Assembly: GCA_964497065.1 (NCBI GenBank)
Contig: CAZCBW010000004.1
Span: forward strand, 40,207 to 104,206
DNA: 64,000 nucleotides
Direction of reading: 5' to 3'
Origin: an uncultured Candidatus Brevefilum sp.
GTDB taxonomy: Bacteria; Chloroflexota; Anaerolineae; Anaerolineales; Anaerolineaceae
The notes beneath the pieces were generated by a model, which searched no databases, had not been told where the DNA came from, and was given only the letters and a program-made list of their open reading frames with translations. Of this stretch, positions 3,391-31,667 are shown one piece after another; the stretch's first letter is position 1, and every line of letters begins with the position of its first letter. Made by a program: the position numbers and the translations under genes.

Positions 3391-4380
3391 TTATTTTAAT
3401 CGTGAGGTGGTGAATAAAAGTAAACCAATCCCAAACAGGCTGACCACAACCAATCCGATCCCAACACCCATTGTATCCCCACTGAAAATATTGACCAAAA
3501 TGTTTCCCTGTAAGGGTGGCACTTCCGTAGGTGTTGGTTCTGCTGTCGGCATCAACGTCCGTGTGACTGTTGGTGCTGGTGTCAGGGTGAATGTTGGTGA
3601 AGGTGTTGGTTCTGGTGCTTCTGCATCTTCGTCTTCCTGGTAATTTTCGTCTGGGGGAACAATGATCAGTTCCTGGTCAGGGTAAATCACAGTGTCTTCG
3701 GTGAGGTAATTTAATGCCAGCATCTCAGACATCTCAATTTCATAAGCATTGACGATCTTCCACAGGGTATGCCCGTATTGCACCACATGGATCACTGAGC
3801 CATCCGGGTTGGGTGTGGCAACGGAAACCAAATTGATGAATGGTCCCGACGTGGGGGTTGGGCCGCTGGGGGCAGATGATGCCGGGGGTGGGCTCCAAGT
3901 GCCAGGTGTACCAAATTTCACCACATAGATTGTTAATCCGGAACCATCCACAGCAACGCCTGCGCCGAATTCAGGCCGGGTTGTGAGCATATTATTGATA
4001 TGCGGGCCGGAGTTTGCCCAAACCGTATACACCACTTCGCTGGCAGTCCAGCTTCCCCTGGCCCAGTTTTCTGTCGCTGTGCCGTCGTACCCGACAGCCC
4101 GGGCACGATCCGTGGGTGTACTGCCGCCTGCGCCGGTATGCCCTCCGGGGTTGCCGGCTGCGATCCAATTTGCATGCTGTTGTGCGGCAATATTCAGGTA
4201 CTGGTTTTCGGCCAGCGGATCCCTGCCGTTGGCTGCCCGCAGCCCGTTGATTTCTGCCAGCACCTGGGCAGCTGTGCCTCCCTGGGCAGATACCGGCTCA
4301 GAGACAGCCAGTACCATCGCCGCTGCCAGCCAGATTATTGTTAGGAACGCAAAAAGTCGTGTTTTATTATCTTGTTTCAT
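3391..4380 (-). CDS. Secreted CAP/SCP + LysM domain protein with Pro/Thr linker and C-terminal TM anchor
   Basis: Signal peptide; INGLRAANG...AAQQHA...ENWA...SGPHINNML (CAP); HVVQYGHTLWKI...LNYL...IYPDQELIIV (LysM); PTPT repeats; hydrophobic C-terminus. Confidence 0.85.
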   Translation of the reverse strand: MKQDNKTRLFAFLTIIWLAAAMVLAVSEPVSAQGGTAAQVLAEINGLRAANGRDPLAENQYLNIAAQQHANWIAAGNPGGHTGAGGSTPTDRARAVGYDGTATENWARGSWTASEVVYTVWANSGPHINNMLTTRPEFGAGVAVDGSGLTIYVVKFGTPGTWSPPPASSAPSGPTPTSGPFINLVSVATPNPDGSVIHVVQYGHTLWKIVNAYEIEMSEMLALNYLTEDTVIYPDQELIIVPPDENYQEDEDAEAPEPTPSPTFTLTPAPTVTRTLMPTAEPTPTEVPPLQGNILVNIFSGDTMGVGIGLVVVSLFGIGLLLFTTSRLK

Positions 4381-4512
4381 CTTATTCCGGCGTTTTTTGG
4401 GGGTGTTGGTGATGAAATCACCGGCAAACTTCTTTAATCGGCTGTATTTTACTCATCAACCTAAAAAAAATCAATCCCGGTAAATAGCTTTTATTGGTTA
4501 TGTTGATAAACC

Positions 4513-5574
4513 TCAATTAACCAAAACCTTATCACCCTGGATGACCTCTCCGATCTTCCAGGCAGGGCAGCCTGCCTGACTGGCTGCAGACATAAAAGGT
4601 TTAATATTTGCTTCAGGGACGCCCAATAGCAGCCCGCCGCTGGTTTGGGGATCGAAGAGCAGCATCTGGCTAGCCTCAGAGATGGCAGGGTCAAAAGAAA
4701 CATGCCCGCTGTAGTACAGGCGGTTGTCAAACGCCCCGCCGGGGAAGATCCATGCATCGGCATACTTTCTGGCATTTGTGACGAATGGGACAGCATCAAA
4801 TTCGATTTGCATCCCCAAGCCGGCTGCCAGTGCCATTTCCCAGGCATGACCCAGCAAGCTGAACCCGGTGATATCGGTTGCCGCCCGTAATTGATGCTGA
4901 CGGGCCAGTTCTGCAGCATTGCTGTTCAGCTTCTTCATCCAGCCAACCACCTCAGCGATATCTTCTACTGAGGCTTTGTCTTGTTTCAAGGCAGTGGTGG
5001 TCGTGCCAAATCCCAGGGGTTTGGTCAGCACCAGCTGGTCACCTGGTTGCAACCCATCTTTGCGCAGCATGGATGCCTCATCAGCAAAACCCATCGCCAC
5101 CAGGCCGATCTTGGGTTCTTTATCCTGAATGGTATGTCCGCCGACAATCACTGCACCTGATTCTGCGGTTTTCTCTGCCAGCCCCCGCATGATGGCTTTA
5201 GAAATTTCTGGGTCTAGGTCAGGCGGGAGGGCAGCAATGGTTAACGCTGCAAAGGGTATGCCGCCCATGGCATACACATCCGATAAGCTGTTTGCGGCGG
5301 CAATGGCACCGTAATCATACGGATCGTCAACCACCGGTGTGAAGAAATCGGTTGTCATCACCAGCACCCGGCCGTCTGGCAGCCGCCAAGCAGCTGCGTC
5401 ATCGGGATTGTTTAACCCGATCAGCAGGTCAGGATACGAGGTGTTTTTGAATTGGTCTGTGATTGGCTGCAGAACCTGCGCCAGCGCTTCCGCGCACAGC
5501 TTGGATGCTCAACCAGCACAGTCTGACAGTGTGGTCAGGCGGATTTGTTTGCCTGAATCAGCTTTTTCGGACAT
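4513..5574 (-). CDS. selD: Selenide, water dikinase SelD containing selenocysteine (UGA at codon 22)
   Basis: The ORF-track call (4513..5367) extends in frame to an ATG at 5574 through TGA at 5509-5511, giving RLTTLSDCAG-U-ASKL. Also DDAA, TTDFFTPVVDDPYDYGAIAAANSLSDVYAMGG and DPQTSGGLL. Confidence 0.93.
5474..5508 (-). promoter_or_regulatory. Candidate bacterial SECIS hairpin immediately 3' of the selD UGA
   Basis: The sequence after UGA reads GCATCCAAGCTGTGCGC-GGAA-GCGCTGGCGCAG, which forms a GCGC/GCGC stem with a GGAA loop at the position expected for a SECIS. Confidence 0.5.
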
Positions 5575-5633
5575 AGGCTCCAATCTTGAACTTGTTTGAC
5601 GGTTGGGGTTAATTATACTCAAGATAGAGTGAT

Positions 5634-6389
5634 TTAGCCGTTGTAAACGGCAGGTCTTGCGGCATGCACAAATGCTTGAAACAGGGACTGGCTTCGATGA
5701 TCGTCAGGCAGGCACTCCGGGTGCCACTGTACACCGATGCCAAACTTAACCCCTTCGATTTCTAGGCCTTCCACCAGGCCGTCTGGAGCAAAAGCCGTTC
5801 CTTTCAGACCTTTACCCACACGAAACACACCCTGGTGGTGCAGGCTGTTGACCATAATTTCATTCTCACCATAAATTTCTTCCAGCCGGCTGCCGCAAAC
5901 CAGGCTGACACTGTGAGATAGTCTGTCACGGGGATGATCGGGGTACCAGTCATGTTTGATTTGGGGCTCTTTTTGGTCGGCTATGTGGGTGTAGAGGGTG
6001 CCGCCGCAGGCTGCATTGAGCACCTGGATCCCTCGGCATATGGCTAATAAGGGCTTGTCAGCTTCTAGAGAAAATCTTACTAAAGAAAATTCCAGGTGGT
6101 CGCGTTCAGGGTTGATACCATAAATTTCAGGGTGTGGTTCACCGTCAAAGTGCGCAGGGTCAATATCACCGCCGCCTGAAAGGAGGACGCCATCCAGTCG
6201 TTGAAAGAGTTCGGTCAACGCAACCTGGTCAATACCAGTTGGGATGATCACAGGGATGCCGCCAACATATTCAACAGCTTCAATATAAGCCCTTCCGAGC
6301 TGGCAGACCTCAGACCCTGCCCGATTTTCGGAGAGTCCGCAGGTGATCCCGATCAGAGGTTTGAAGTCAGGTGACATTACATGCTCCAA
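5634..6389 (-). CDS. Gamma-glutamyl-gamma-aminobutyrate hydrolase family protein (peptidase C26, PuuD-like)
   Basis: LDGVLLSGGGDIDP, LAICRGIQVLN, VNSLHHQ and GVQWHPE class-I glutamine amidotransferase motifs. Confidence 0.9.
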   Translation of the reverse strand: MEHVMSPDFKPLIGITCGLSENRAGSEVCQLGRAYIEAVEYVGGIPVIIPTGIDQVALTELFQRLDGVLLSGGGDIDPAHFDGEPHPEIYGINPERDHLEFSLVRFSLEADKPLLAICRGIQVLNAACGGTLYTHIADQKEPQIKHDWYPDHPRDRLSHSVSLVCGSRLEEIYGENEIMVNSLHHQGVFRVGKGLKGTAFAPDGLVEGLEIEGVKFGIGVQWHPECLPDDHRSQSLFQAFVHAARPAVYNG

Positions 6390-17666: not shown

Positions 17667-18453
17667 ATGAAGTTTGAAAACCGGATCCTCCAGGGTGATT
17701 GTGAACAGGTACTGAAAGCCTTCCCGGATGATAGTGTTGACCTGATTTTTACCTCGCCCCCTTATGCGGATCAAAGAAAAAACACCTATGGCGGCATCAA
17801 ACCGGATGATTATGTGGATTGGTTTATGCCAAGAGCGGCATACCTATGTACTGGAATTGATCCAGGCGATGCGCGGGCAGGGCTGGTTATGGACGGAAGA
17901 ATTCATCTGGCATAAGAAAAATTCATTCCCGGGGAAGTGGCCTAACCGGTTTCGGGATAACTGGGAAAGATTGCTGCAGTTCAACAAGCAGAAGAAATTT
18001 AATATGTACCAGGAAGCGGTGATGGTGCCGGTGGGAAATTGGGCAAAAGACCGCTTGAATAATTTAAGTGAAACCGATAAAACCCGTGATGAATCCAGGG
18101 TCGGCAGCGGATTCGGCAAGAATATCAGCCATTGGGTCGGACGGAAGAAGGTTTATCCCACCAATGTCCTGCATATGGCGACGGAGTGTGCTAACCGGAA
18201 CCACAGTGCAGTCTTTCCGGAGGAATTGCCTTCCTGGTTTATCAAATTATTTACACAGCCGGGTGATCTTGTTCTGGACCCGTTTATTGGGTCAGGTACA
18301 ACAGCGGTGGCAGCAGTCCAGCTGGGAAGAAAATTCATCGGCATCGATGTGGAACATGAATATGTGACATTAAGTGAGCAGCGCTTATCTGATTTGCAGA
18401 TCAGCCTGCCATTGCTTGCAGATAAGAAACCCGATTACAAAGAAGATCAGTGA
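17667..18453 (+). pseudogene. Site-specific N4C/N6A DNA methyltransferase (beta class), frameshifted by an internal deletion
   Basis: Frame A from ATG 17667: ILQGDC..VL..FPDDSVDLIFTSPPY...WFMPR. Frame B from about 17833: ERHTYVLEL...EEFIWHK...HSAVFPEELP.WFIKLFT..GD.VLDPFIGSGTT. The two frames meet at GAGCGG (17833-17838). Confidence 0.85.
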
Positions 18454-18655
18454 CGACCCAAACTTGTATAAGGACATCATTGAGCCCATCGGGTATCGGG
18501 CAAAAGAGCATAATGAGGCCTTCTATCGTGAGAAGGGTCGGGTGGTCAACCGATTCACCAAACTGTTTTTAGACCGATTTTGCGACCAGGCGGGGAACAT
18601 CGATTGGGGGCAATTGGTGGAATTTAACAGTGGGAACCTCGATATGGTGAAATAA
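18446..18655 (+). pseudogene. C-terminal remnant of a type II restriction endonuclease (PmeII-family-like)
   Basis: ISDDPNLYKDIIEPIGYRAKEHNE...NRFT..F...FC...G.IDW..LVEFNS resembles the PmeII-type C-terminus as I recall it. No start codon or N-terminus; it is fused directly at the MTase stop. Confidence 0.55.
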
Positions 18656-19090
18656 GGATTTACCCGCAAGATATGACATTCTTCCTGAAGCTGGGTTTAA
18701 TGAGAATTTACTCTTGCACGAAATCCAGAATCCTATTAGAATAGGGTTTGTACTCAGATGGTTTTAATTTTATTGGTGGGAAGGTGTTGCAGGTGAGTAC
18801 AATGAAAGTTCGTTGATCGGGGCTATTCTTTAGAACGAAAGCAGATAAAATTTTAGATGACGACTGAAGGGGCAGTGGGAAACATCGCAATTACCAACAT
18901 TATCACCAGCCAGGTTTATACCTGCCTGTTGAATGTTTCAAGCCAGCCTGATTTGGGCTGGTTTTGTGGTTAATGGCGATGGCGCTGCCGTTGAAAGGAG
19001 GCACGATCAGGGGAAACTAAAATGACATAATAACCGGTTTATTGACAGACGGCCGGGATCGTACCGCCAATGGGAATCCCAAGCGCACAA

Positions 19091-19225
19091 CCCTGGCATC
19101 CATAAGATGGATCCGGGGTGGGAACACAGCCCATCCAGCGGGGAAAACGTCCGGCGAGTCTGCCGGCGAAGGGGCACCAGGCGCAAATTTATCATATTGT
19201 ATTTATCACAGCCAGCGTGCCCCCG
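19091..19225 (+). ncRNA. Candidate structured leader RNA (c-di-AMP/ydaO-riboswitch-like 5' half)
   Basis: Stems CCCTGG/CCGGGG (19091-96 / 19113-18), CATC/GATG, TGGG/CCCA, CCGGC/GCCGG and GGGGCAC/GTGCCCC (19171-77 / 19217-23). Lies about 135 nt upstream of the giant surface-protein ATG. Confidence 0.4.
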
Positions 19226-19358
19226 CCGGGGAAATTGACCAACTATTTAATCGAAATGCACAGGAATTGCCAGCCGCGGCCGCGCAGCCAGCGGCTGCGA
19301 TCTGGCATCTTAAGGGTGCTGGTGTGCCTGTGCCAAACAAAAACGGAGGAAAATCAAG

Positions 19359-22300
19359 ATGGGTACGAAAAGAATTATGTTTAAGTCGCTGGGTGTGTTG
19401 ATGGCACTGGCGATACTGATGGTGGCACTACCGGTTTTAACGGTTCAGGCACAGACAACTCGATATGTTGATCTGAATTATGGATCAAATACACCTGGTT
19501 GGGAAACAACCCACTTTGCCACAATCCAGAGTGCGATTGATGCTGCCAGTTCTGGTGACACGATTACTGTTGCTGCAGGAACTTATACTGAAGATGTGAC
19601 TGTTAATAAGCCCATAACTTTGGTTGGTGCAGGGAGAGATGATGTCACCATTCAAGGTGTAGGCACCGGAGAATCAGCTGCTCTGGTAATTGCTGCGGAC
19701 GATGTGACGTTTGAAGGTTTCACGATCCAAGGAGCAGCAGGAGGAAGAAAAACCGTACGTGTGACCACGGCGACGATAAACCTCGAGTTTTTGAACAACA
19801 AAGTTGTCACGGCTGATAACTCGGGTGAAGACAATGCCTGGAGTGGGTTTGAAACCACAGGCACCCAAACGGATCACATAATTAATGGGAATATTTTTAT
19901 TGGCAATAAAACTGCACAGTTGATTTATTTCAATCCAAATACCGTTGGGCTCACATTTACCAACAATACTATTGAAGGCACAGTGCGGCCAAATGGTTTG
20001 GTGGCTGGTTTTGAGGGGTTGGATGGTACCCAGAACATCAGTGGGAACACCTTTGATATCGAATCGGATTATGCGGTTCTTGAGCTTTTTGGAACTTTTG
20101 ATGGTGAAGCGATATTTGCTGCAAACACCTTCCCAGATGGCTACGTATTAATCGTCAATAAGGTTGTAAAAGCACCTCCTGTTTATAATGTTACACAAGG
20201 AACTTACTTTGACACCATCCAGAGTGCGATTGATGCTGCCAGTTCTGGTGACACGATCGAGGTGGCACCAGGGACATACGATGAAGATATTAATATCAAT
20301 AAATCCTTGACATTAAAAAGTGAATCAGGAGCTGATAATACATTAATTCGTGGTCAAAAGGGTGGTAATAATGCTACGATTCGAGTTTCTGCAAATGATG
20401 TAATAATTGATGGGTTTACCATAACAAGAGTTGGAAATAATCTTGCGGAGTGGAATGATTCGAGTTTAAAGACTGCTGGTATCGCGATTATTAATCGTTC
20501 GAATTCTGGATTATTAATCAAAAATAATATCATCATAGGGAATCGAACAGGGATAGATGTAAACAACACTTCCTATGTGACTATACAAAATAATGAGATC
20601 ATTGACAATCGCACAGGTTTATTATTCCGGAATGAAACCAATTATTTAACGGTTATTAATAATGAAATTACAGATAACTGGACAATTGGTATCCTGTTCT
20701 TGGATATGGGTGGCACTCCTCCCCAAACAGCTCATAACAGTGTGTTTAATAATAATAATCTTAGTGGCAATTGGTATGGTCAAGTTGAAGATAGACAACT
20801 TCCAGATGCTGAAGAAACAAATTTCAAAGATTTTTCATCGAATTGGTGGGGATCAACAAATTTGACAATTACCTCTGAGCCTGCAGGTGAACCGGGTTAT
20901 GCTGATCTAATACCAGTTAAATATGGTGGTACAGCAACCCCACCTGATTTTGCACCTGCCATTGTTGGAATCGCATCAAGCAATATCTTGTTTTGTCCTG
21001 TTCTTGATGCTCCACCGCCAGTTGGTGAGGTTTATTATTCAGTAGAAAATGCCGACACCGGTGAAAAATTCTGTACCATTCAAACTGGAATTGATGCTGC
21101 CAGCGTTGGTGAGACTTTAATTGTTTCACCTGGAACATATAATGAACTATTGATAGTTGACAAACCACTCACACTTCTTGGTCCAAATGCAGGAATTCAT
21201 GGCACTTCAGATCGCACCTCTGAAGCTGAGATTATTGGGCCATCGAATATGTGGTTATCTATATATGTTTCATCTGAAAATGTTGTAATTGATGGCTTTA
21301 CCATCAATGGTATAAATCTCGACCCTGGAAATTACTATACGGTAGGCTTATATAGTGTTGCGGGAGACTTTATATTAAAGAATAATATCTTCACGAACAA
21401 TAATGGCATGTCAATTCTTACTTCAGGAGGCTCATATGCTTCAGGGAATTCAATTTCCGGAGTAATGATCATTGATAATTTAATAACTAATGAGTATCCA
21501 AGTGATGACCCCTACAATTTTGGCATATATCTTCAAAGTACCCTTGCTTCTGTTACAGGCAATTTTGTCGAAAATATGCGAAGTGGTATACAGATACAAC
21601 CTTATAATATCCCTGGATATGGGTTAGTTGAAAATAACACCTTTTTAGCATATGCAAGGCCTCTATGGTTTAATTATGCAGTTCATGTGGACTCGAATTG
21701 GGAAATTAAAAACAATTTGATTTCTGGGATTGCTACACCTAGCTCTATCGAAGAACGACCATTTAATGCGATCCGAGTTGAAACATTCTACAATGGAAAT
21801 GTTTCCTTTACCCAAAACAGGGTGTTGTTCGGTGAAGCAAACTCTACAGAGCAAAATTTGTATCGGGAAAACAATGTTACTAATGGTATTAGTAACGCCT
21901 CACCAAACTGGTGGGGGAACATTGCTGGTCCAAAAGAAGCATTTGTAACACTCAAAGATACCTCATATATCCCCTGGTGCGGTGACCCCGAGTGCTCGTT
22001 CCTGGTTTACCCCAACGAAAAAGGCGAACTCGTGCTCGAAGGTACTATCAACCTTGACGGCGGTGTAAAGGTCGACGTGGACGGCGTCACGATCCTGGTA
22101 AAGGACGGTACGATCATTAAAAATGTGTCACCTTGCTTTGAAGTCACAGCGAACAACGTCACCATCCTCGGCGAGTCTGAGGGCGGCGCAACCTGTGTAC
22201 CAACCGGCACTTCCGCAGGCGTCGAAGTAGCTGACGGCGTTGAGACTTTGACTGTTAAAGGGCTGCATTTTGACGGCTCTGAGACATCCGGCCCGGCGAT

Positions 22301-24272
22301 CCATTTTGCTGGCAATGTTCAAGACATCCAGGTCCTCGATAACCTGTTTGAGGCTTTCTCACCTTCTGCGCTGGTGTTTGACGGTGCGGTAGATAAGCAC
22401 TTCATCCAGGGTAATCTCTTCTTGAATGTTGGTGCCCCGGCGATAATCTCAACAACCGAAATTAGCGCAGCTTACAACAGCTGGGGTGTCAATGAAGCGC
22501 CTGTAATCTCTGGTGTAACCACAACGCCTTTTACCCATGTAGATCTGTGGGTTTTGCCTGTAACAACGCAGGTGCTCCAGGGGGAAGATATCACCTTCAC
22601 CGTCATGGCAGATATGCAAAATATTGCAGGTGCTGAATTTGATCTCATTTATCCCACTGATCTCTTGACATTTAGTGGGTTTAGTGATGTTACCGTAGAA
22701 TTCATGGGCATAATTACTGGTGATGACCCGGAAACCCAAGCGGATTTGCTTACCCATTCACTAGGCGTAATTTCATTCCGTGGAACCTACGATTTCACCG
22801 ATAGTGAGGCCGGCCCTGTCTCAGGTGAAGATCTGGTCTTGTTCCGGGCAACCTTTACAGCATCCGAAACGCTGACCAGATTTGATACTCTTGGTTTGGT
22901 TGAGCTGCCCCAGGGATTTGCCATGAGCCCGGATATCGAACATGCCACCAATTATGTCTACCCGCTCCTCGCTGAAGATGTTGCGGTTAGCGTGGTGGCA
23001 CCGCCGGTGATCACCTCGGAGGATATTGAGGGCTACTACCTGGTCGATGAACTTCGGGAATTCAAGGTCAAAATGACCAACCCTGCGGAGGGCGGTACCT
23101 ATGAGCTCGTCCTGTTCCGCTTCGAAGTTGAGGCAGTAGATGGGGACATTACCCTGTTCCAGTACAAAGCTGATGAAAACTGGCTGAACATGCCTCTGGA
23201 CTGTGTGGGCGGTACCTGTGTGGGTTATTATGGGTCAGAGACTGGCTTCCCGCTTGGGACGAATTATGAAAGCGAAACCACGTTCCGGATCCAGTTTGCA
23301 AAATCAGGCGCCTACCCGGTGGTTATCACACTGGAAGATCTGAATGCTGACAACCACCTGCTGGCTTCATTAGAAGCTGAACCCCAGGTATATGCTGTTC
23401 CGGTCATTAGCTCGGACGATCTGGCAGGGCCTTATGTGGTCGACATTACCCAGGAATTCAAAGTGGCCATGACCAACCCTGCGGACGGCGGTACCTATGA
23501 ATATGTTCTGTTCCACTTCGAGGTTAAAGCCGAGGATGGGGACATTGCGGTCTTCCAATACAAAGCCGGAGAAAACTGGCTCGACATGCCGTTGACCTGT
23601 GTTTCAGGTACCTGTGTGGGGTATTACGGCCCTTCAGGTGGATTTAAGATTGAACCAAACTATTTTGCTGAAACCACCTTCCGGGTTCAGTTTGCGGAAA
23701 CGGGTACCTACCCGGTTGACGTGACACTGGTGGATCTGGATATGGATGAGCGTGTTCTGGCTGAATTTGATGACGACGCCATCGTCATCGACAGTGAACA
23801 GCTGGTCGGCCGGGTGATGATGCAGGGCCGTTATGAACGCGGCGGCGTCCTGTTCACGTTGACCCGAGAAGATACTGGCTTCGTCACGACAGCGTTCTCG
23901 TTGAGCCAACTTGGTCAACACAACGTTTTCATTGATGATGTAGCTGAGGGGTTGACATATTCCGTAACAGTCTCACAAGACCGCTACCTTGATGTGCATT
24001 TGGCCTTGGATAAAGTAATTACCTTGTCTAATGGCCAGTTTATCCTGCCTGATCTGTACCTGTATGCCGGCGATGTTACCAATACGAACGAGGTTGATAT
24101 TGGCGATGCAGCGCTGGTCGGTGCCCAATATGGTCTAACCGGTGCGGCAATCAGCCTTGAAGGCGATGCCAATTTCGACGGCCGGGTCAACATTCAAGAC
24201 CTGGCTCTGGTCGGCGGGAACTTCCGCATGACCTCGGGATCAGCCTACAGTACATGGTTATTAGCTGACTAG
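19359..24272 (+). CDS. 1637-aa secreted multidomain protein: parallel beta-helix modules, cohesin, two 132-aa repeats, carboxypeptidase-regulatory-like domain, C-terminal dockerin
   Basis: Signal peptide (VQA/Q). Three TIQ.AIDAA..GDTI.V..GTY.E module starts. Cohesin-like VLQGEDITFTV...IAGAEFDLIYPTDLL...VLFRATFTA. Duplicated Ca-loop GDVTNTNEVDIGD / GDANFDGRVNIQD. Confidence 0.85.
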   Translation: MGTKRIMFKSLGVLMALAILMVALPVLTVQAQTTRYVDLNYGSNTPGWETTHFATIQSAIDAASSGDTITVAAGTYTEDVTVNKPITLVGAGRDDVTIQGVGTGESAALVIAADDVTFEGFTIQGAAGGRKTVRVTTATINLEFLNNKVVTADNSGEDNAWSGFETTGTQTDHIINGNIFIGNKTAQLIYFNPNTVGLTFTNNTIEGTVRPNGLVAGFEGLDGTQNISGNTFDIESDYAVLELFGTFDGEAIFAANTFPDGYVLIVNKVVKAPPVYNVTQGTYFDTIQSAIDAASSGDTIEVAPGTYDEDININKSLTLKSESGADNTLIRGQKGGNNATIRVSANDVIIDGFTITRVGNNLAEWNDSSLKTAGIAIINRSNSGLLIKNNIIIGNRTGIDVNNTSYVTIQNNEIIDNRTGLLFRNETNYLTVINNEITDNWTIGILFLDMGGTPPQTAHNSVFNNNNLSGNWYGQVEDRQLPDAEETNFKDFSSNWWGSTNLTITSEPAGEPGYADLIPVKYGGTATPPDFAPAIVGIASSNILFCPVLDAPPPVGEVYYSVENADTGEKFCTIQTGIDAASVGETLIVSPGTYNELLIVDKPLTLLGPNAGIHGTSDRTSEAEIIGPSNMWLSIYVSSENVVIDGFTINGINLDPGNYYTVGLYSVAGDFILKNNIFTNNNGMSILTSGGSYASGNSISGVMIIDNLITNEYPSDDPYNFGIYLQSTLASVTGNFVENMRSGIQIQPYNIPGYGLVENNTFLAYARPLWFNYAVHVDSNWEIKNNLISGIATPSSIEERPFNAIRVETFYNGNVSFTQNRVLFGEANSTEQNLYRENNVTNGISNASPNWWGNIAGPKEAFVTLKDTSYIPWCGDPECSFLVYPNEKGELVLEGTINLDGGVKVDVDGVTILVKDGTIIKNVSPCFEVTANNVTILGESEGGATCVPTGTSAGVEVADGVETLTVKGLHFDGSETSGPAIHFAGNVQDIQVLDNLFEAFSPSALVFDGAVDKHFIQGNLFLNVGAPAIISTTEISAAYNSWGVNEAPVISGVTTTPFTHVDLWVLPVTTQVLQGEDITFTVMADMQNIAGAEFDLIYPTDLLTFSGFSDVTVEFMGIITGDDPETQADLLTHSLGVISFRGTYDFTDSEAGPVSGEDLVLFRATFTASETLTRFDTLGLVELPQGFAMSPDIEHATNYVYPLLAEDVAVSVVAPPVITSEDIEGYYLVDELREFKVKMTNPAEGGTYELVLFRFEVEAVDGDITLFQYKADENWLNMPLDCVGGTCVGYYGSETGFPLGTNYESETTFRIQFAKSGAYPVVITLEDLNADNHLLASLEAEPQVYAVPVISSDDLAGPYVVDITQEFKVAMTNPADGGTYEYVLFHFEVKAEDGDIAVFQYKAGENWLDMPLTCVSGTCVGYYGPSGGFKIEPNYFAETTFRVQFAETGTYPVDVTLVDLDMDERVLAEFDDDAIVIDSEQLVGRVMMQGRYERGGVLFTLTREDTGFVTTAFSLSQLGQHNVFIDDVAEGLTYSVTVSQDRYLDVHLALDKVITLSNGQFILPDLYLYAGDVTNTNEVDIGDAALVGAQYGLTGAAISLEGDANFDGRVNIQDLALVGGNFRMTSGSAYSTWLLAD
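19524..20257 (+). repeat. Exact 41-bp direct repeat pair at starts of beta-helix modules 1 and 2
   Basis: ATCCAGAGTGCGATTGATGCTGCCAGTTCTGGTGACACGAT occurs at 19524-19564 and 20217-20257. Confidence 0.95.
22993..23790 (+). repeat. Tandem intragenic duplication, 396-nt (132-aa) period
   Basis: ATGACCAACCCTGCGGA(G/C)GGCGGTACCTATGA at 23073 and 23469. Protein repeat EFKV.MTNPA.GGTYE.VLF.FEV.A.DGDI..FQYKA.ENWL.MPL.CV.GTCVGYYG. Confidence 0.92.
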
Positions 24273-24289
24273 AGAATTATTAACGTCCA

Positions 24290-24316
24290 GCAGGCCGGCC
24301 TTTATGGCCGGCCTGC
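24290..24316 (+). terminator. 11-bp perfect hairpin after the giant protein gene (no U-tract; attenuator or stabiliser?)
   Basis: GCAGGCCGGCC-TTTAT-GGCCGGCCTGC followed by AAAC rather than poly-T. Confidence 0.5.
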
Positions 24317-24405
24317 AAACCTATTTAATGATTAAGTTATGCTGCAAAATGAGCTGCCCCATGAAGGATGATCTGGCCCATGATGCAGTTGAGAATATTA
24401 CCGGG

Positions 24406-25389
24406 ATGGCATTATTGATCAATTATCGTATTTATCTTTTATTGGGGCTGCTGTTGCTGATGGTGATTCCCGAAGCTTCGGTGCAGGCTGCCGATTCGGC
24501 CCTGTTGTGGATAGACCCACCCTCCCAGAGCTTGCCGGCCGGGAACCAGGCGCAGGTGGTGATCGCCATCCGCAATGCGGAAGAGGTGAATGCCTTTGAT
24601 GTGCTGATCACCTATGACTCCGCGATTTTGGGGTTGTTCTCCTGGTCACACGGCGGGTTTTTTCAAAACCTGTCCTGCCTGGACCAATCTATCCAGCCTG
24701 GGCGTATCCAGCTGGCCTGCACCCAGGTGGCGCGGCCGGCCGTCAGCGGAGATGGTGTGCTGCTGACATTGGTATTTGACGCATTGGCGGGCGGCACATC
24801 CCAGGTGCGGATTGCAGAAGGGGTGTTTGCCAACCGGCTTGGTGTCAAGTCCTTCCCAGAACGGCAGCATGGGTCGGTGCAGGTACAGAGCCTGCCTACC
24901 TTCACCCACACACCGACATCAACTCCGACACAAACACCGACGCGCACGCCCACACCGACAATGACGGCTACCCGCACCCCGACTTCCACACTCCAGGTAA
25001 CCAGCGGGCTGCCACAGGCTGCGACAGCAGGCAAGTCGACAGCGGTGGTTGGGGCACAGCCCACCCGTGTTCGTCCTGGCGAGACTCAGCCAGCCTGGGG
25101 TATCCCTGAAAGCCAGTTTGAGCAGGGGTACCCGATTGAGGGAGATCAGGGTTTGGCAGCGGATGTTCAGGCAGCCACGGCTTATCCCGCCAGCGAGGGG
25201 GATGCAGAACCGCCAAACTTTGAACCGGCTGTTCAGAATGAGGCGGCAGTTGAAACGCCTTCGGAGGGGGCAGGTATTATGGAATTTTTATTGTGGGGGC
25301 TGCTGACCGGCAGCGGTGTTGGGTTATTTGGTTTGATCGGACTTTACTGGTTTAGAAGAAATAGAAAAAGTGAGGACATATTGTTATGA
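24406..25389 (+). CDS. Cohesin-domain protein with Pro/Thr linker and C-terminal TM anchor
   Basis: Signal peptide (VQA/A); LWIDP...VVIAIRNAEEVNAFDVLITYDSAIL...VSGDGVLLTLVFDA..G.S cohesin; TPTPT linker; TM followed by RRNRK. Start codon uncertain (the ORF track starts at 24304). Confidence 0.82.
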   Translation: MALLINYRIYLLLGLLLLMVIPEASVQAADSALLWIDPPSQSLPAGNQAQVVIAIRNAEEVNAFDVLITYDSAILGLFSWSHGGFFQNLSCLDQSIQPGRIQLACTQVARPAVSGDGVLLTLVFDALAGGTSQVRIAEGVFANRLGVKSFPERQHGSVQVQSLPTFTHTPTSTPTQTPTRTPTPTMTATRTPTSTLQVTSGLPQAATAGKSTAVVGAQPTRVRPGETQPAWGIPESQFEQGYPIEGDQGLAADVQAATAYPASEGDAEPPNFEPAVQNEAAVETPSEGAGIMEFLLWGLLTGSGVGLFGLIGLYWFRRNRKSEDILL

Positions 25390-26207
25390 AAGTCAATATG
25401 ATGTTTTATTGGTTGTGTTTGGGTGTGATCATCTGTTTTGCTTCGATGCCTGTGTCTGCACAGGCAGTGGGCGAAGCACAAATCGGTTTCTTCGAAGAGA
25501 TCATAATTGCGCCGGGGAGCAAGGTGGAAGTGCCCGTTGAAATTCGGGGGGTGGAAGATCTTTATGCGGTTGATATTACAGTCCGTTTTGATCCATCAGT
25601 GATCCAGGCGGTGGATGCTGATCCGTCCAAGGACGGCATCCAGCCCGGTCTGGGTACCTTTTTAGACGCCGGATTGGTCTTATTCAACGAAGTGGATAAC
25701 GAAGAAGGGGTGATCCGTTTCGTAATGACGCAAGTCAATCCGGCTGAACCGAAGTCGGGTGACGGCGTGCTGATGGTACTGTATTTTGAAAGCAATCTAT
25801 CAGGGGAATCTGTGCTGGCCATTGAGTCGGTTGATCTAGCCATGCGCACAGGCGAAGCTATTGCGGTGGAACCGGTTGAAGGCCGACTGCTGGTGGAAGC
25901 CGGCGCGCCGCAGCGCGAGGGCACCCCGATCCCGGTGCAGGACCCGACACTGATTATCGTCATCCCAACGTTGACTCCGACCCCGACTCCGACCGAGATA
26001 CCGCCTACACCAACCTCGACGGTCCCGCCTGGTGAGCTCGATGAGGTGCAGGAAAATGGCGAAGTTGGATTAGAGATCATCAATCAGGAGGATGAAGCAA
26101 TCCAGGCAGGCTACACGATCCTTGATTATTGGTGGGCAGTTGTTCTGGTTGTTCTGTTGGTGATCGGGTTGGCTGTGTATTTATTCAAGACCAAAAAGAT
26201 TGTTTAG
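25386..26207 (+). CDS. Cohesin-domain protein with Pro/Thr linker and C-terminal TM anchor
   Basis: PGSKVEVPVEIRGVEDLYAVDITVRFDPSVIQ...SGDGVLMVLYF; PTLTPTPTPT; WWAVVLVVLLVIGLAVYLF-KTKK. Confidence 0.85.
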   Translation: MKVNMMFYWLCLGVIICFASMPVSAQAVGEAQIGFFEEIIIAPGSKVEVPVEIRGVEDLYAVDITVRFDPSVIQAVDADPSKDGIQPGLGTFLDAGLVLFNEVDNEEGVIRFVMTQVNPAEPKSGDGVLMVLYFESNLSGESVLAIESVDLAMRTGEAIAVEPVEGRLLVEAGAPQREGTPIPVQDPTLIIVIPTLTPTPTPTEIPPTPTSTVPPGELDEVQENGEVGLEIINQEDEAIQAGYTILDYWWAVVLVVLLVIGLAVYLFKTKKIV

Positions 26208-29019: not shown

Positions 29020-29095
29020 CACACGCTTCCGGATTTGTCCTGCGTGCCCATATGATGGGTGAGGGACAAGCCAGAAGGAGGCGGAGGACTAAAAC
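29020..29095 (+). promoter_or_regulatory. rpsB (S2) autoregulatory leader
   Basis: CACACGC start, TTGTCC/GGGACAA and CCCA/TGGG nested stems, and a GGAGG...AAAC end, directly upstream of rpsB. Confidence 0.55.
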
Positions 29096-29111
29096 GCAAA
29101 GGAGTTATAAA

Positions 29112-30188
<1,077 letters not shown>

Positions 30189-30236
30189 AGCGGTCCTCTT
30201 TTACAGCCTTAAGATTAGATAGGAAAGCAAATAAAG

Positions 30237-30863
30237 ATGGAAATTACTACTGAGATGATCAAAGAACTGCGGGAGGCCACCGGATGCGGCATTCTCGATT
30301 GCCGGGCAGCGCTTCGTGATGCCGACGGTGATTTTGATAAAGCCAGCGATATCCTGCGTGAGAAAGGCCTGGCCAAGGCCGCAAAACGAGCCGGGCGTGA
30401 AGCCTCTGAAGGCGTGATCGAAGTCTATACCCATGGAGAAGGCCGCATGGCCGTGATGGTTGAAGTCAACTGTGAGACTGACTTTGTGGGCCGCTCACCA
30501 GACTTTCTCAATCTCTCCCACGAAATTGCACTGCAAATTGCAGCAGCGAACCCTCTGTATGTAAGCGAGGAAGAAATACCCCAGGCTGTTCTGGATCACG
30601 AGAGCCAGATCGCTGCTGCCCGTTCCAAGGAAGAGGGCAAGCCAGACAATATCATCCCCAAGATCGTCGAAGGTTACCTCAAGAAGTACAAAGAGGAAAC
30701 GGTCTTGATGAACCAGCCCTATGTCCGTGACGGCAGTTTGACGGTGAATGATCTAATCAATGAGCAGGTCAGTAAACTTGGAGAGAAGATTGTCGTCCGC
30801 CGGTTCGTCCGGTGGGAACTCGGCGCTGATTCTGGCGTTGAGGAAGACGAAGAAGAAGGATAA
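30237..30863 (+). CDS. tsf: Translation elongation factor Ts (short form)
   Basis: IKELRE.TG.GILDC..AL, R.ASEG, VEVNCETDFV and VRRFVRWELG motifs. Confidence 0.97.
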   Translation: MEITTEMIKELREATGCGILDCRAALRDADGDFDKASDILREKGLAKAAKRAGREASEGVIEVYTHGEGRMAVMVEVNCETDFVGRSPDFLNLSHEIALQIAAANPLYVSEEEIPQAVLDHESQIAAARSKEEGKPDNIIPKIVEGYLKKYKEETVLMNQPYVRDGSLTVNDLINEQVSKLGEKIVVRRFVRWELGADSGVEEDEEEG

Positions 30864-30867
30864 CATG

Positions 30868-30901
30868 AACAAAGGCCAGCCGCAAGGTTGGCCTTTGTTT
30901 T
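30868..30901 (+). terminator. Intrinsic terminator after tsf
   Basis: AACAAAGGCCAGCC-GCAA-GGTTGGCCTTTGTT followed by TT. Confidence 0.75.
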
Positions 30902-30911
30902 AGCAGTTTGA

Positions 30912-31667
<756 letters not shown>

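Follow-up and report, generated by a model that had tools for sequence, protein, structure and literature searches.

A beta-helix protein of an uncultured Candidatus Brevefilum sp. with a predicted cohesin and a putative X-module-dockerin end: a possible membrane-anchored adaptor encoded in a conserved Anaerolineaceae locus

The DNA analysed here, referred to as the window, is a stretch of 64,000 nucleotides (nt) from an uncultured Candidatus Brevefilum sp. (assembly GCA_964497065.1, contig CAZCBW010000004.1, positions 40,207-104,206 of the forward strand). It encodes P0001, of which the C-terminal 590 residues, the last third of the open reading frame (ORF), are the subject of this report; they are predicted to form a cassette of a cohesin, two Ig-like repeats, an X-module and a dockerin (Table 1). 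A preliminary description of the window had been made from its letters without database searches. Comparison with related genomes placed P0001 in a conserved cohesin-dockerin assembly locus. The domain identities, the conserved architecture and gene order, the cohesin orthogroups and the distance correlations presented below are observations; binding by the modules, the choice of partner cohesin and the role of the passenger are inferences. On balance we consider it probable, with modest confidence, that P0001 is anchored through its X-module and dockerin (X-Doc) to a membrane cohesin, and that its internal cohesin is a hetero-specific socket.

According to this proposal, P0001 would be a secreted beta-helix protein displayed on the cell surface. 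Its X-Doc dyad would plug in a Ca-dependent manner into the cohesin of a tail-anchored membrane protein encoded immediately downstream, most likely P0027 (TMA), the PT-rich (Pro/Thr-rich) linker of which would span the wall. A stiff stalk would be formed by the two Ig-like repeats together with the X-module, since the linkers between them are very short, and the internal cohesin would most likely re-offer one docking site to a different dockerin-bearing partner, P0001 doubling as a one-socket adaptor. The logic would be that by which type II cohesins and X-dockerins anchor cellulosomal scaffoldins, transferred to a monoderm Chloroflexota cell with a membrane helix as the anchor; it appears to be the most economical reading.

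The preliminary description reported a cohesin-like domain from about 22539 (residue 1061 of P0001) and a C-terminal dockerin on the same polypeptide. Both were recovered, the cohesin on orthologue, profile and fold evidence and the dockerin on sequence evidence. Residues 1052-1210 are predicted to form a diverged cohesin-fold domain, because the orthologue matches, the family profile and the predicted fold all point to cohesins. Scanning residues 1050-1215 of P0001 with Pfam and NCBIfam gave no match, and the isolated fragment gave none in Pfam even at E values up to 10. When 16 orthologous modules were scanned singly, nine matched PF00963 Cohesin, with a best E value of 2.4e-10; orthologous internal modules were also matched, down to 4e-16, by a hidden Markov model (HMM) of the neighbouring cohesins. 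A profile of the 16 internal modules had cohesins as its four best matches in the PDB (E 0.008-0.011), and its alignment by hhalign with the single cohesin of P0028 (TMB) was weak (E about 0.01, probability 4%).

The Pfam cohesin domain PF00963 is a nine-stranded jelly-roll. The AlphaFold2 model of the internal module, built on the orthologue alignment, was all-beta, with a predicted local distance difference test score (pLDDT) of 75.5 and a predicted template modelling (TM) score (pTM) of 0.75. A Foldseek search of the PDB with this model, the quality of which is moderate, returned cohesins as all of the top 32 matches (E 7e-6 to 3e-4, TM scores 0.45-0.60), types I, II and III being mixed among them. 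The motifs GA[DE]F, LFxxTF and FxMxP were found conserved in the module. Among 27 orthologues, the window's copy ranks second in divergence, and its branch is 1.47 long versus a median of 0.39.

The C-terminal end of P0001 was identified as a putative two-repeat dockerin. In its Ca loop 1, DVTNTNEVDIGD, positions 1, 9 and 12 are retained and Thr occupies 3 and 5, and loop 2, DANFDGRVNIQD, has the canonical form; each loop is followed by a copy of a duplicated helix motif (DAALVGAQYG and DLALVGGNFR). Pfam Dockerin_1 (PF00404) scored 19.7-22.3 bits on P0001 (E 1.5e-4 to 1e-3), just missing the gathering score of 22.9, and four of 12 relatives matched a Pfam dockerin at E < 0.01. The motifs MQGR and RYL(N/D)V are conserved in the X-module. 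Searched as a single sequence, the end of P0001 found its best PDB match in 2b59_B, the X-module/type II dockerin of Clostridium thermocellum CipA (E 0.0017), in an alignment that begins within the X-module. With the X-Doc family profile, the six best matches (2b59_B, 4u3s_B, 5k39_B, 5g5d_B, 3kcp_A and 4wi0_B; E 8e-5 to 3e-4) were all dyads of an X-module and a type II dockerin, among them those of CipA and of Acetivibrio cellulolyticus ScaA, aligned over part of X and the dockerin; the similarity is weak in absolute terms. Judged by sequence, the X-Doc end of P0001 appears to resemble the pairs of X-module and type II dockerin by which clostridial scaffoldins are anchored. AlphaFold2 prediction of R2-X-Doc from a 12-sequence alignment folded the repeat alone and gave the X-Doc short helices only, with pLDDT below 50.

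Between the cohesin and the dockerin, two 132-residue repeats and a beta-sandwich had been described, which correspond to residues 1216-1479 (R1 and R2) and to the X-module at residues 1480-1565, respectively. R1 and R2 share 62-63% identity. Tandem Repeats Finder detected no repeat in their DNA because the DNA has diverged too far, and the isolated repeats gave no match in Pfam or NCBIfam. AlphaFold2 modelled R2 at a pLDDT of about 93, the predicted fold being an Ig-like beta-sandwich, and Foldseek with this model found pilin-shaft, CARDB and transglutaminase-type sandwiches at low TM scores, which is a generic Ig-like likeness only. The inter-domain joints of the cassette are 2-5 residues long, which suggests a stiff stalk.

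The N-terminus of P0001 is a Sec-type signal peptide, MGTKRIMFKSLGVLMALAILMVALPVLTVQA. The passenger that follows matched three beta-helix families in Pfam, namely PF13229 Beta_helix (1.4e-16), PF05048 NosD (2.8e-12) and PF07602 DUF1565 (3.1e-9), with partial NosD-like and LIC10774-like matches in NCBIfam; a PDB sequence search with the 1017-residue beta-helix region gave no match. The passenger is probably polysaccharide-active or adhesive.

The membrane cohesins on which the preliminary description relied do exist: P0027 and P0028 lie directly downstream of P0001, and both of these single-cohesin proteins combine a signal peptide and a PT-rich linker with a transmembrane helix at the C-terminus, a hydrophobic helix that is followed by basic residues. 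All three genes directly 3' of P0001 passed the Pfam cohesin threshold, P0027 with 24.4 bits against a gathering score of 24.1. The start of P0028 overlaps the stop of P0027 by 4 nt. The true start of P0027 is probably an internal Met near 24406, and that of P0029 is likely MKRYML at about 26228. A six-frame translation of the window contained no dockerin-like loop besides those of P0001, and scanning of the locus genes with Pfam found no carbohydrate-binding module (CBM) and no cellulase.

An exhaustive HMMER search with an E-value limit of 1e-3 found 871 cluster representatives, of which 89 also passed a limit of 1e-30. Domain HMMs derived from the window's modules showed that the dominant architecture is a cohesin, then 0-4 copies of the 132-residue repeat, X and a dockerin. 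The combination of cohesin and dockerin recurs in the same order in more than 100 proteins, and their co-occurrence on one chain is far from chance. In long X-Doc proteins (at least 900 residues, n = 102), exactly one cohesin was found in 100, none was detected in two, and none of the proteins had two or more. In 87 of these 102, at most 20 residues separate the dockerin from the C-terminus. Besides beta-helix, the passengers of the relatives include pectinesterase, GH43, PA, Big_2, Glug and cadherin-like domains; as the N-terminal passengers are variable, the cassette can be regarded as a reusable C-terminal 'foot'.

In a scan that took a single genome for each species, 44 loci were detected, nearly all in Anaerolineaceae metagenome-assembled genomes (MAGs) of Bellilinea, Longilinea, Brevefilum, Anaerolinea and Mesolinea. 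The locus consists of an optional small LPL-tailed cohesin protein, one to three cassette proteins, an optional adaptor of ~340 residues made of a cohesin, an X-module and a dockerin (Coh-X-Doc), TMA, TMB and a large protein with an N-terminal cohesin. The order BIG, optional Coh-X-Doc adaptor, TMA, TMB and cohesin-cadherin protein was kept in more than 30 loci, again nearly all from Anaerolineaceae MAGs, and the same order was seen in eight more loci, which were retrieved by protein identity and read from gene calls made independently and from precomputed Pfam hits. In the window, the locus takes its minimal form and has no adaptor of ~340 residues. In every locus, cohesins outnumber dockerins. 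The chromosomal site of the window is shared by loci L048, L050 and L051 and lies between rplS/peptidase C26 (with a CAP-LysM protein) and rpsB-tsf-pyrH; the flanks are at 3391-6389 and 29052-31667 of the window. Since the same site is occupied in several genomes, the locus is a vertically inherited chromosomal one, and a mobile island was rejected on the same ground.

To compare the candidate sockets, 162 cohesins were placed in a tree, which is a quick tree with the careful search unfinished. The internal cohesins formed one clade apart from all other cohesins, with a support of 99 in the Shimodaira-Hasegawa-like approximate likelihood ratio test (SH-aLRT) and a branch length of 1.0. Further groups were formed by TMA, by TMB (SH-aLRT 95 for the orthogroup) and by the cohesins at the N-termini of the large proteins, and the adaptor cohesins nested within TMA. 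Because of this nesting, TMA-type sockets appear to be those copied onto soluble extenders. Two dockerin subtypes were distinguished, 'LALVGGN' on the cassette proteins and 'LALVAGN' on the adaptors. Overall, the cohesins of the locus family fall into four or more orthogroups and its X-dockerins into two subtypes.

Distance matrices were then compared by Mantel tests across 23 loci. Dockerin distances correlated with those of the TMA cohesin (r = 0.54, p = 0.0002; partial r 0.37 with TMB controlled) and of the TMB cohesin (r = 0.44, p = 0.0002; partial r 0.12 with TMA controlled). For the dockerin and the internal cohesin of the same protein the values were r = 0.01 and p = 0.46, with a partial r of -0.13 when TMB was controlled. 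The result was similar when the window was left out. Over the runs with 23 and with 15 loci, the correlation of the dockerin with its own cohesin was r = 0.01 to -0.16. In the window, the dockerin ranks third of 25 in divergence, the internal cohesin second of 27 and the TMA cohesin third of 20, while the cohesins of TMB and P0029 are average. Paralogues within a locus showed no consistent homogenisation of either dockerins or cohesins. Taken together, the comparative evidence favours TMA as the probable partner of the X-Doc and lends no support to a self-cognate cohesin-dockerin pair in P0001. The preliminary description had offered two readings of such a protein, self-polymerisation or, if the pair is non-cognate, an adaptor scaffoldin for dockerin enzymes encoded elsewhere. 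These data mildly disfavour the former, and the latter fits better; the link that it drew from P0001 to a filament sheath is speculation.

Several points weigh against anchoring of P0001 to TMA with a hetero-specific internal socket. The putative dockerin falls just under the Pfam gathering score and the X-Doc was left unfolded by AlphaFold2. With four cohesins and one dockerin, the locus in the window leaves three sockets, the internal one included, without a plug in the window. The correlation between dockerin and TMA drops to r = 0.11 when the distal, not the proximal, paralogue is used in multi-copy loci (15 loci), shared phylogeny inflates every correlation (TMA versus TMB, r = 0.67), and mirror-tree correlations are in general weak predictors of binding; the co-evolution evidence for the dockerin-TMA pairing is fragile. 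Finally, the strict 1:1 valency of cohesin and dockerin is explained more naturally by chaining.

In such a daisy chain, the X-Doc would bind the internal cohesin of another copy or paralogue as well as the membrane cohesin, each unit that fills a socket would offer a new one, and a head-to-tail bottle-brush fibre would grow from the membrane. The strongest argument for it is the strict 1:1 valency, with one cohesin in 100 of the 102 long X-Doc proteins and two or more in none, unlike both multi-cohesin scaffoldins and cohesin-less enzymes. The one-cohesin rule is kept even where cohesin type and position differ (L021, L027, L029 and L031). The excess of cohesins over dockerins in every locus and the one to three tandem cassette paralogues in some loci also agree with chaining; the linkers of a few residues argue against binding in cis and leave binding in trans possible. 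An Archaeoglobus fulgidus protein with both modules reportedly binds its own cohesin. Against this stand the position of the internal cohesins in a distinct long-branch clade apart from the membrane cohesins, the uncorrelated distances of dockerin and own cohesin, the lack of consistent homogenisation among paralogues of a locus and the unusual divergence of the window's internal cohesin. Moreover, to our knowledge, characterised scaffoldins avoid self-cognate cohesin-dockerin pairs. We hold the daisy chain to be a minority possibility.

Generalised to the Anaerolineaceae, the idea becomes that of a conserved, chromosomally fixed, non-cellulosomal system with a strict one-socket/one-plug rule for every plug-bearing protein, in which linear head-to-tail chains start from two kinds of membrane-helix-anchored cohesins. 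This more general proposition is unlikely in our judgement. If true, the large beta-helix proteins (and enzymes in other genomes) would make up a 'bottle-brush' layer or a fibre at the surface of the filament, built from cellulosome parts.

It is improbable that the internal module has lost dockerin binding and is now a structural or ligand-binding beta-sandwich of the stalk, P0001 being dockerin-tagged cargo. The window's copy is indeed unseen by Pfam and sits on the long branch noted above, the window encodes no plug cognate to it, and cohesin-like folds occur in other contexts, as a CLIPPER adhesin domain and integrin domains were also among the Foldseek matches of the module. However, the module is kept at the same place with its conserved motifs in about 100 proteins, which indicates a selected, shared function, and nine of the 16 orthologues are still Pfam cohesins.

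An intramolecular clasp, in which the dockerin folds back on its own chain's cohesin, for instance to mask the plug until export or to rigidify the C-terminus, would suit the presence of both modules on one chain, and intramolecular stabilising contacts within dockerins are described for Ruminococcus flavefaciens ScaA (PMC3821032); but three intervening sandwich domains with 2-5-residue linkers and a repeat number of 0-4 in relatives make one conserved cis geometry unlikely, and the conserved neighbouring membrane cohesins would have no role, so that we give a clasp very little credence. A true cellulosome was rejected, as there is one cohesin per protein, no multi-cohesin scaffoldin, no CBM or cellulase in the locus, and one dockerin in the 64-kb window.

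The preferred reading, anchoring of P0001 through its X-Doc to a membrane cohesin, has its closest parallel in clostridial type II anchoring, that is, the X-DocII of C. thermocellum CipA with SdbA, OlpB or Orf2p, and the X-Doc of Acetivibrio cellulolyticus ScaA with ScaB. Here as there, a C-terminal X-Doc dyad is carried by a cohesin-bearing protein, the receptor cohesins (here the candidate receptors) belong to other, cell-bound proteins whose genes are close by, and the linkers are Pro/Thr-rich. In contrast to the clostridial systems, the anchors here are C-terminal membrane helices and not SLH domains or sortase signals, each protein has one cohesin instead of many, the cohesin protein bears a large beta-helix passenger, and the locus has no CBM or cellulase. 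The host is a member of the Anaerolineae (Chloroflexota) and not a Firmicute, and the sequence similarity is low (E about 1e-4).

The ScaC-type adaptor scaffoldins of R. flavefaciens are small proteins with one cohesin, one dockerin and no passenger. They resemble the cassette proteins in having one socket and one plug per chain, with a cohesin specificity that differs from the socket filled by the dockerin (as would be the case here); unlike them, the 1:1 cassette described here is the C-terminal foot of proteins of 1000-2000 residues. The use of cohesin and dockerin outside cellulose degradation is shared with the non-cellulosomal modules of A. fulgidus and of the glycoside-hydrolase complexes of Clostridium perfringens, and the structural matches found by Foldseek include 2xdh, a cohesin of A. 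fulgidus, and 2w1n, a cohesin-FN3 construct of C. perfringens GH84C. Lineage, architecture and anchoring differ from both, and the modules here are encoded in a conserved multi-gene locus. A cohesin and a dockerin on one protein are also found in Clostridium clariflavum scaffoldins and are ordinary for scaffoldins (PMC4582956).

Taken as a whole, the compact conserved Anaerolineae locus is a small defined module set, with four cohesins and one X-dockerin in the window. Among the high-affinity protein connectors of bacteria, cohesin-dockerin pairs are the best understood, but they have been studied almost only in the cellulosomes of Firmicutes; the filamentous Anaerolineae are abundant in anaerobic digesters and sediments. 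The locus bears on the way in which giant exoproteins are retained at the surface of monoderm Chloroflexota, on whether strict 1:1 valency encodes chain formation, and on whether its modules supply new orthogonal connectors for protein engineering. A literature search for this cohesin-dockerin system in Anaerolineae found no description of it, and a genome study of Anaerolineae identified no cohesins or dockerins (PMC4877987).

Table 1. Features of P0001 and of the cohesin genes downstream of it (window coordinates; aa, amino acids)
Feature	Position	Strand	Description
P0001, whole gene	19359..24272	+	1637 aa; signal peptide, three right-handed beta-helix regions, predicted cohesin / 2 x Ig-like repeat / X-module / dockerin cassette; from ORF list and translation
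P0001 N-terminal passenger	19359..22511	+	signal peptide and ~1000 aa of parallel beta-helix modules; Pfam
Internal cohesin-fold module (predicted)	22512..22988	+	aa 1052-1210; diverged member of a clade confined to cassette proteins; orthologues, profile, fold, tree
Repeat R1	23004..23399	+	aa 1216-1347; Ig-like beta-sandwich stalk domain
Repeat R2	23400..23795	+	aa 1348-1479; Ig-like beta-sandwich stalk domain
X-module	23796..24053	+	aa 1480-1565; ~85-aa beta-sandwich before the dockerin; homologous to cellulosomal X-modules
C-terminal dockerin (putative)	24054..24269	+	aa ~1566-1637; two F-hand repeats, 'LALVGGN' subtype, conserved AYxxW tail
P0027 (TMA)	24304..25389	+	signal peptide, cohesin, Thr/Pro-rich linker, C-terminal transmembrane helix and basic tail
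P0028 (TMB)	25386..26207	+	signal peptide, cohesin, PT linker, C-terminal transmembrane helix with YWW motif; Pfam Cohesin 3e-10
P0029	26129..27427	+	signal peptide, N-terminal cohesin, Big_9/cadherin-like domains, tail KYYLPLITR; Pfam Cohesin 7e-6, Big_9 4.4e-10

The Coh-X-Doc adaptor of ~340 residues was found in about half of the related loci (L001, L004, L005, L010, L015, L022, L023, L026, L031, L032 and L050-L052). It combines a TMA-type cohesin with the distinct 'LALVAGN' dockerin subtype. It tends to occur together with the small cohesin protein that has the LPL tail (13/4 versus 2/8 loci; p = 0.007 in a Fisher test without correction for phylogeny), which suggests a second plug-socket pair. 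A simpler sister system was found in other Anaerolineae/Chloroflexota MAGs (L035 and L037-L043), comprising a protein of ~800 residues with one cohesin and a C-terminal dockerin, a cohesin anchored by a transmembrane helix, and a dockerin-only protein of ~330-500 residues; its two sockets and two plugs fit the adaptor wiring. Four cassette loci (L016, L017, L043 and L044) come from MAGs that bear the labels Bacteroidales, Syntrophorhabdus, Bacteroidetes or Phycisphaerae, in which they occupy short contigs. These labels look like binning errors rather than transfers, because the distribution is otherwise exclusively Anaerolineae.

The tail KYYLPLITR of P0029 (27401-27424) is conserved in its orthologues. 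Secreted cohesin proteins that have no transmembrane helix share a short conserved tail, [YF]-[LIF]-P-[LI]-[IVL]-x-[KR], which closes the protein or stands very close to its C-terminus, and this tail was also found in the small and large cohesin proteins of other loci (L001, L004, L005, L009, L015, L019, L022, L023, L026, L032, L045 and L050-L052). The tail may be an undescribed sorting or attachment signal.

RNA-seq data were sought for expression and operon structure; no RNA runs contain the stretch, and four DNA metagenome runs from one study do. A promoter and terminator scan gave a site count not above that of shuffled sequence. Upstream of P0001, the ~900 nt at 18454-19358 are without a long ORF, the one exception being a 119-aa frame that overlaps the P0001 start, and an Rfam scan of this leader at E up to 1 found no match. 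The G+C content falls to 0.386 at 20001-22000, in the beta-helix part of P0001, versus 0.47-0.55 on the flanks. Immediately upstream of the locus, a 229-aa ORF (17764-18453) was found to encode an N6/N4 DNA methylase domain (PF01555, 2.2e-32).

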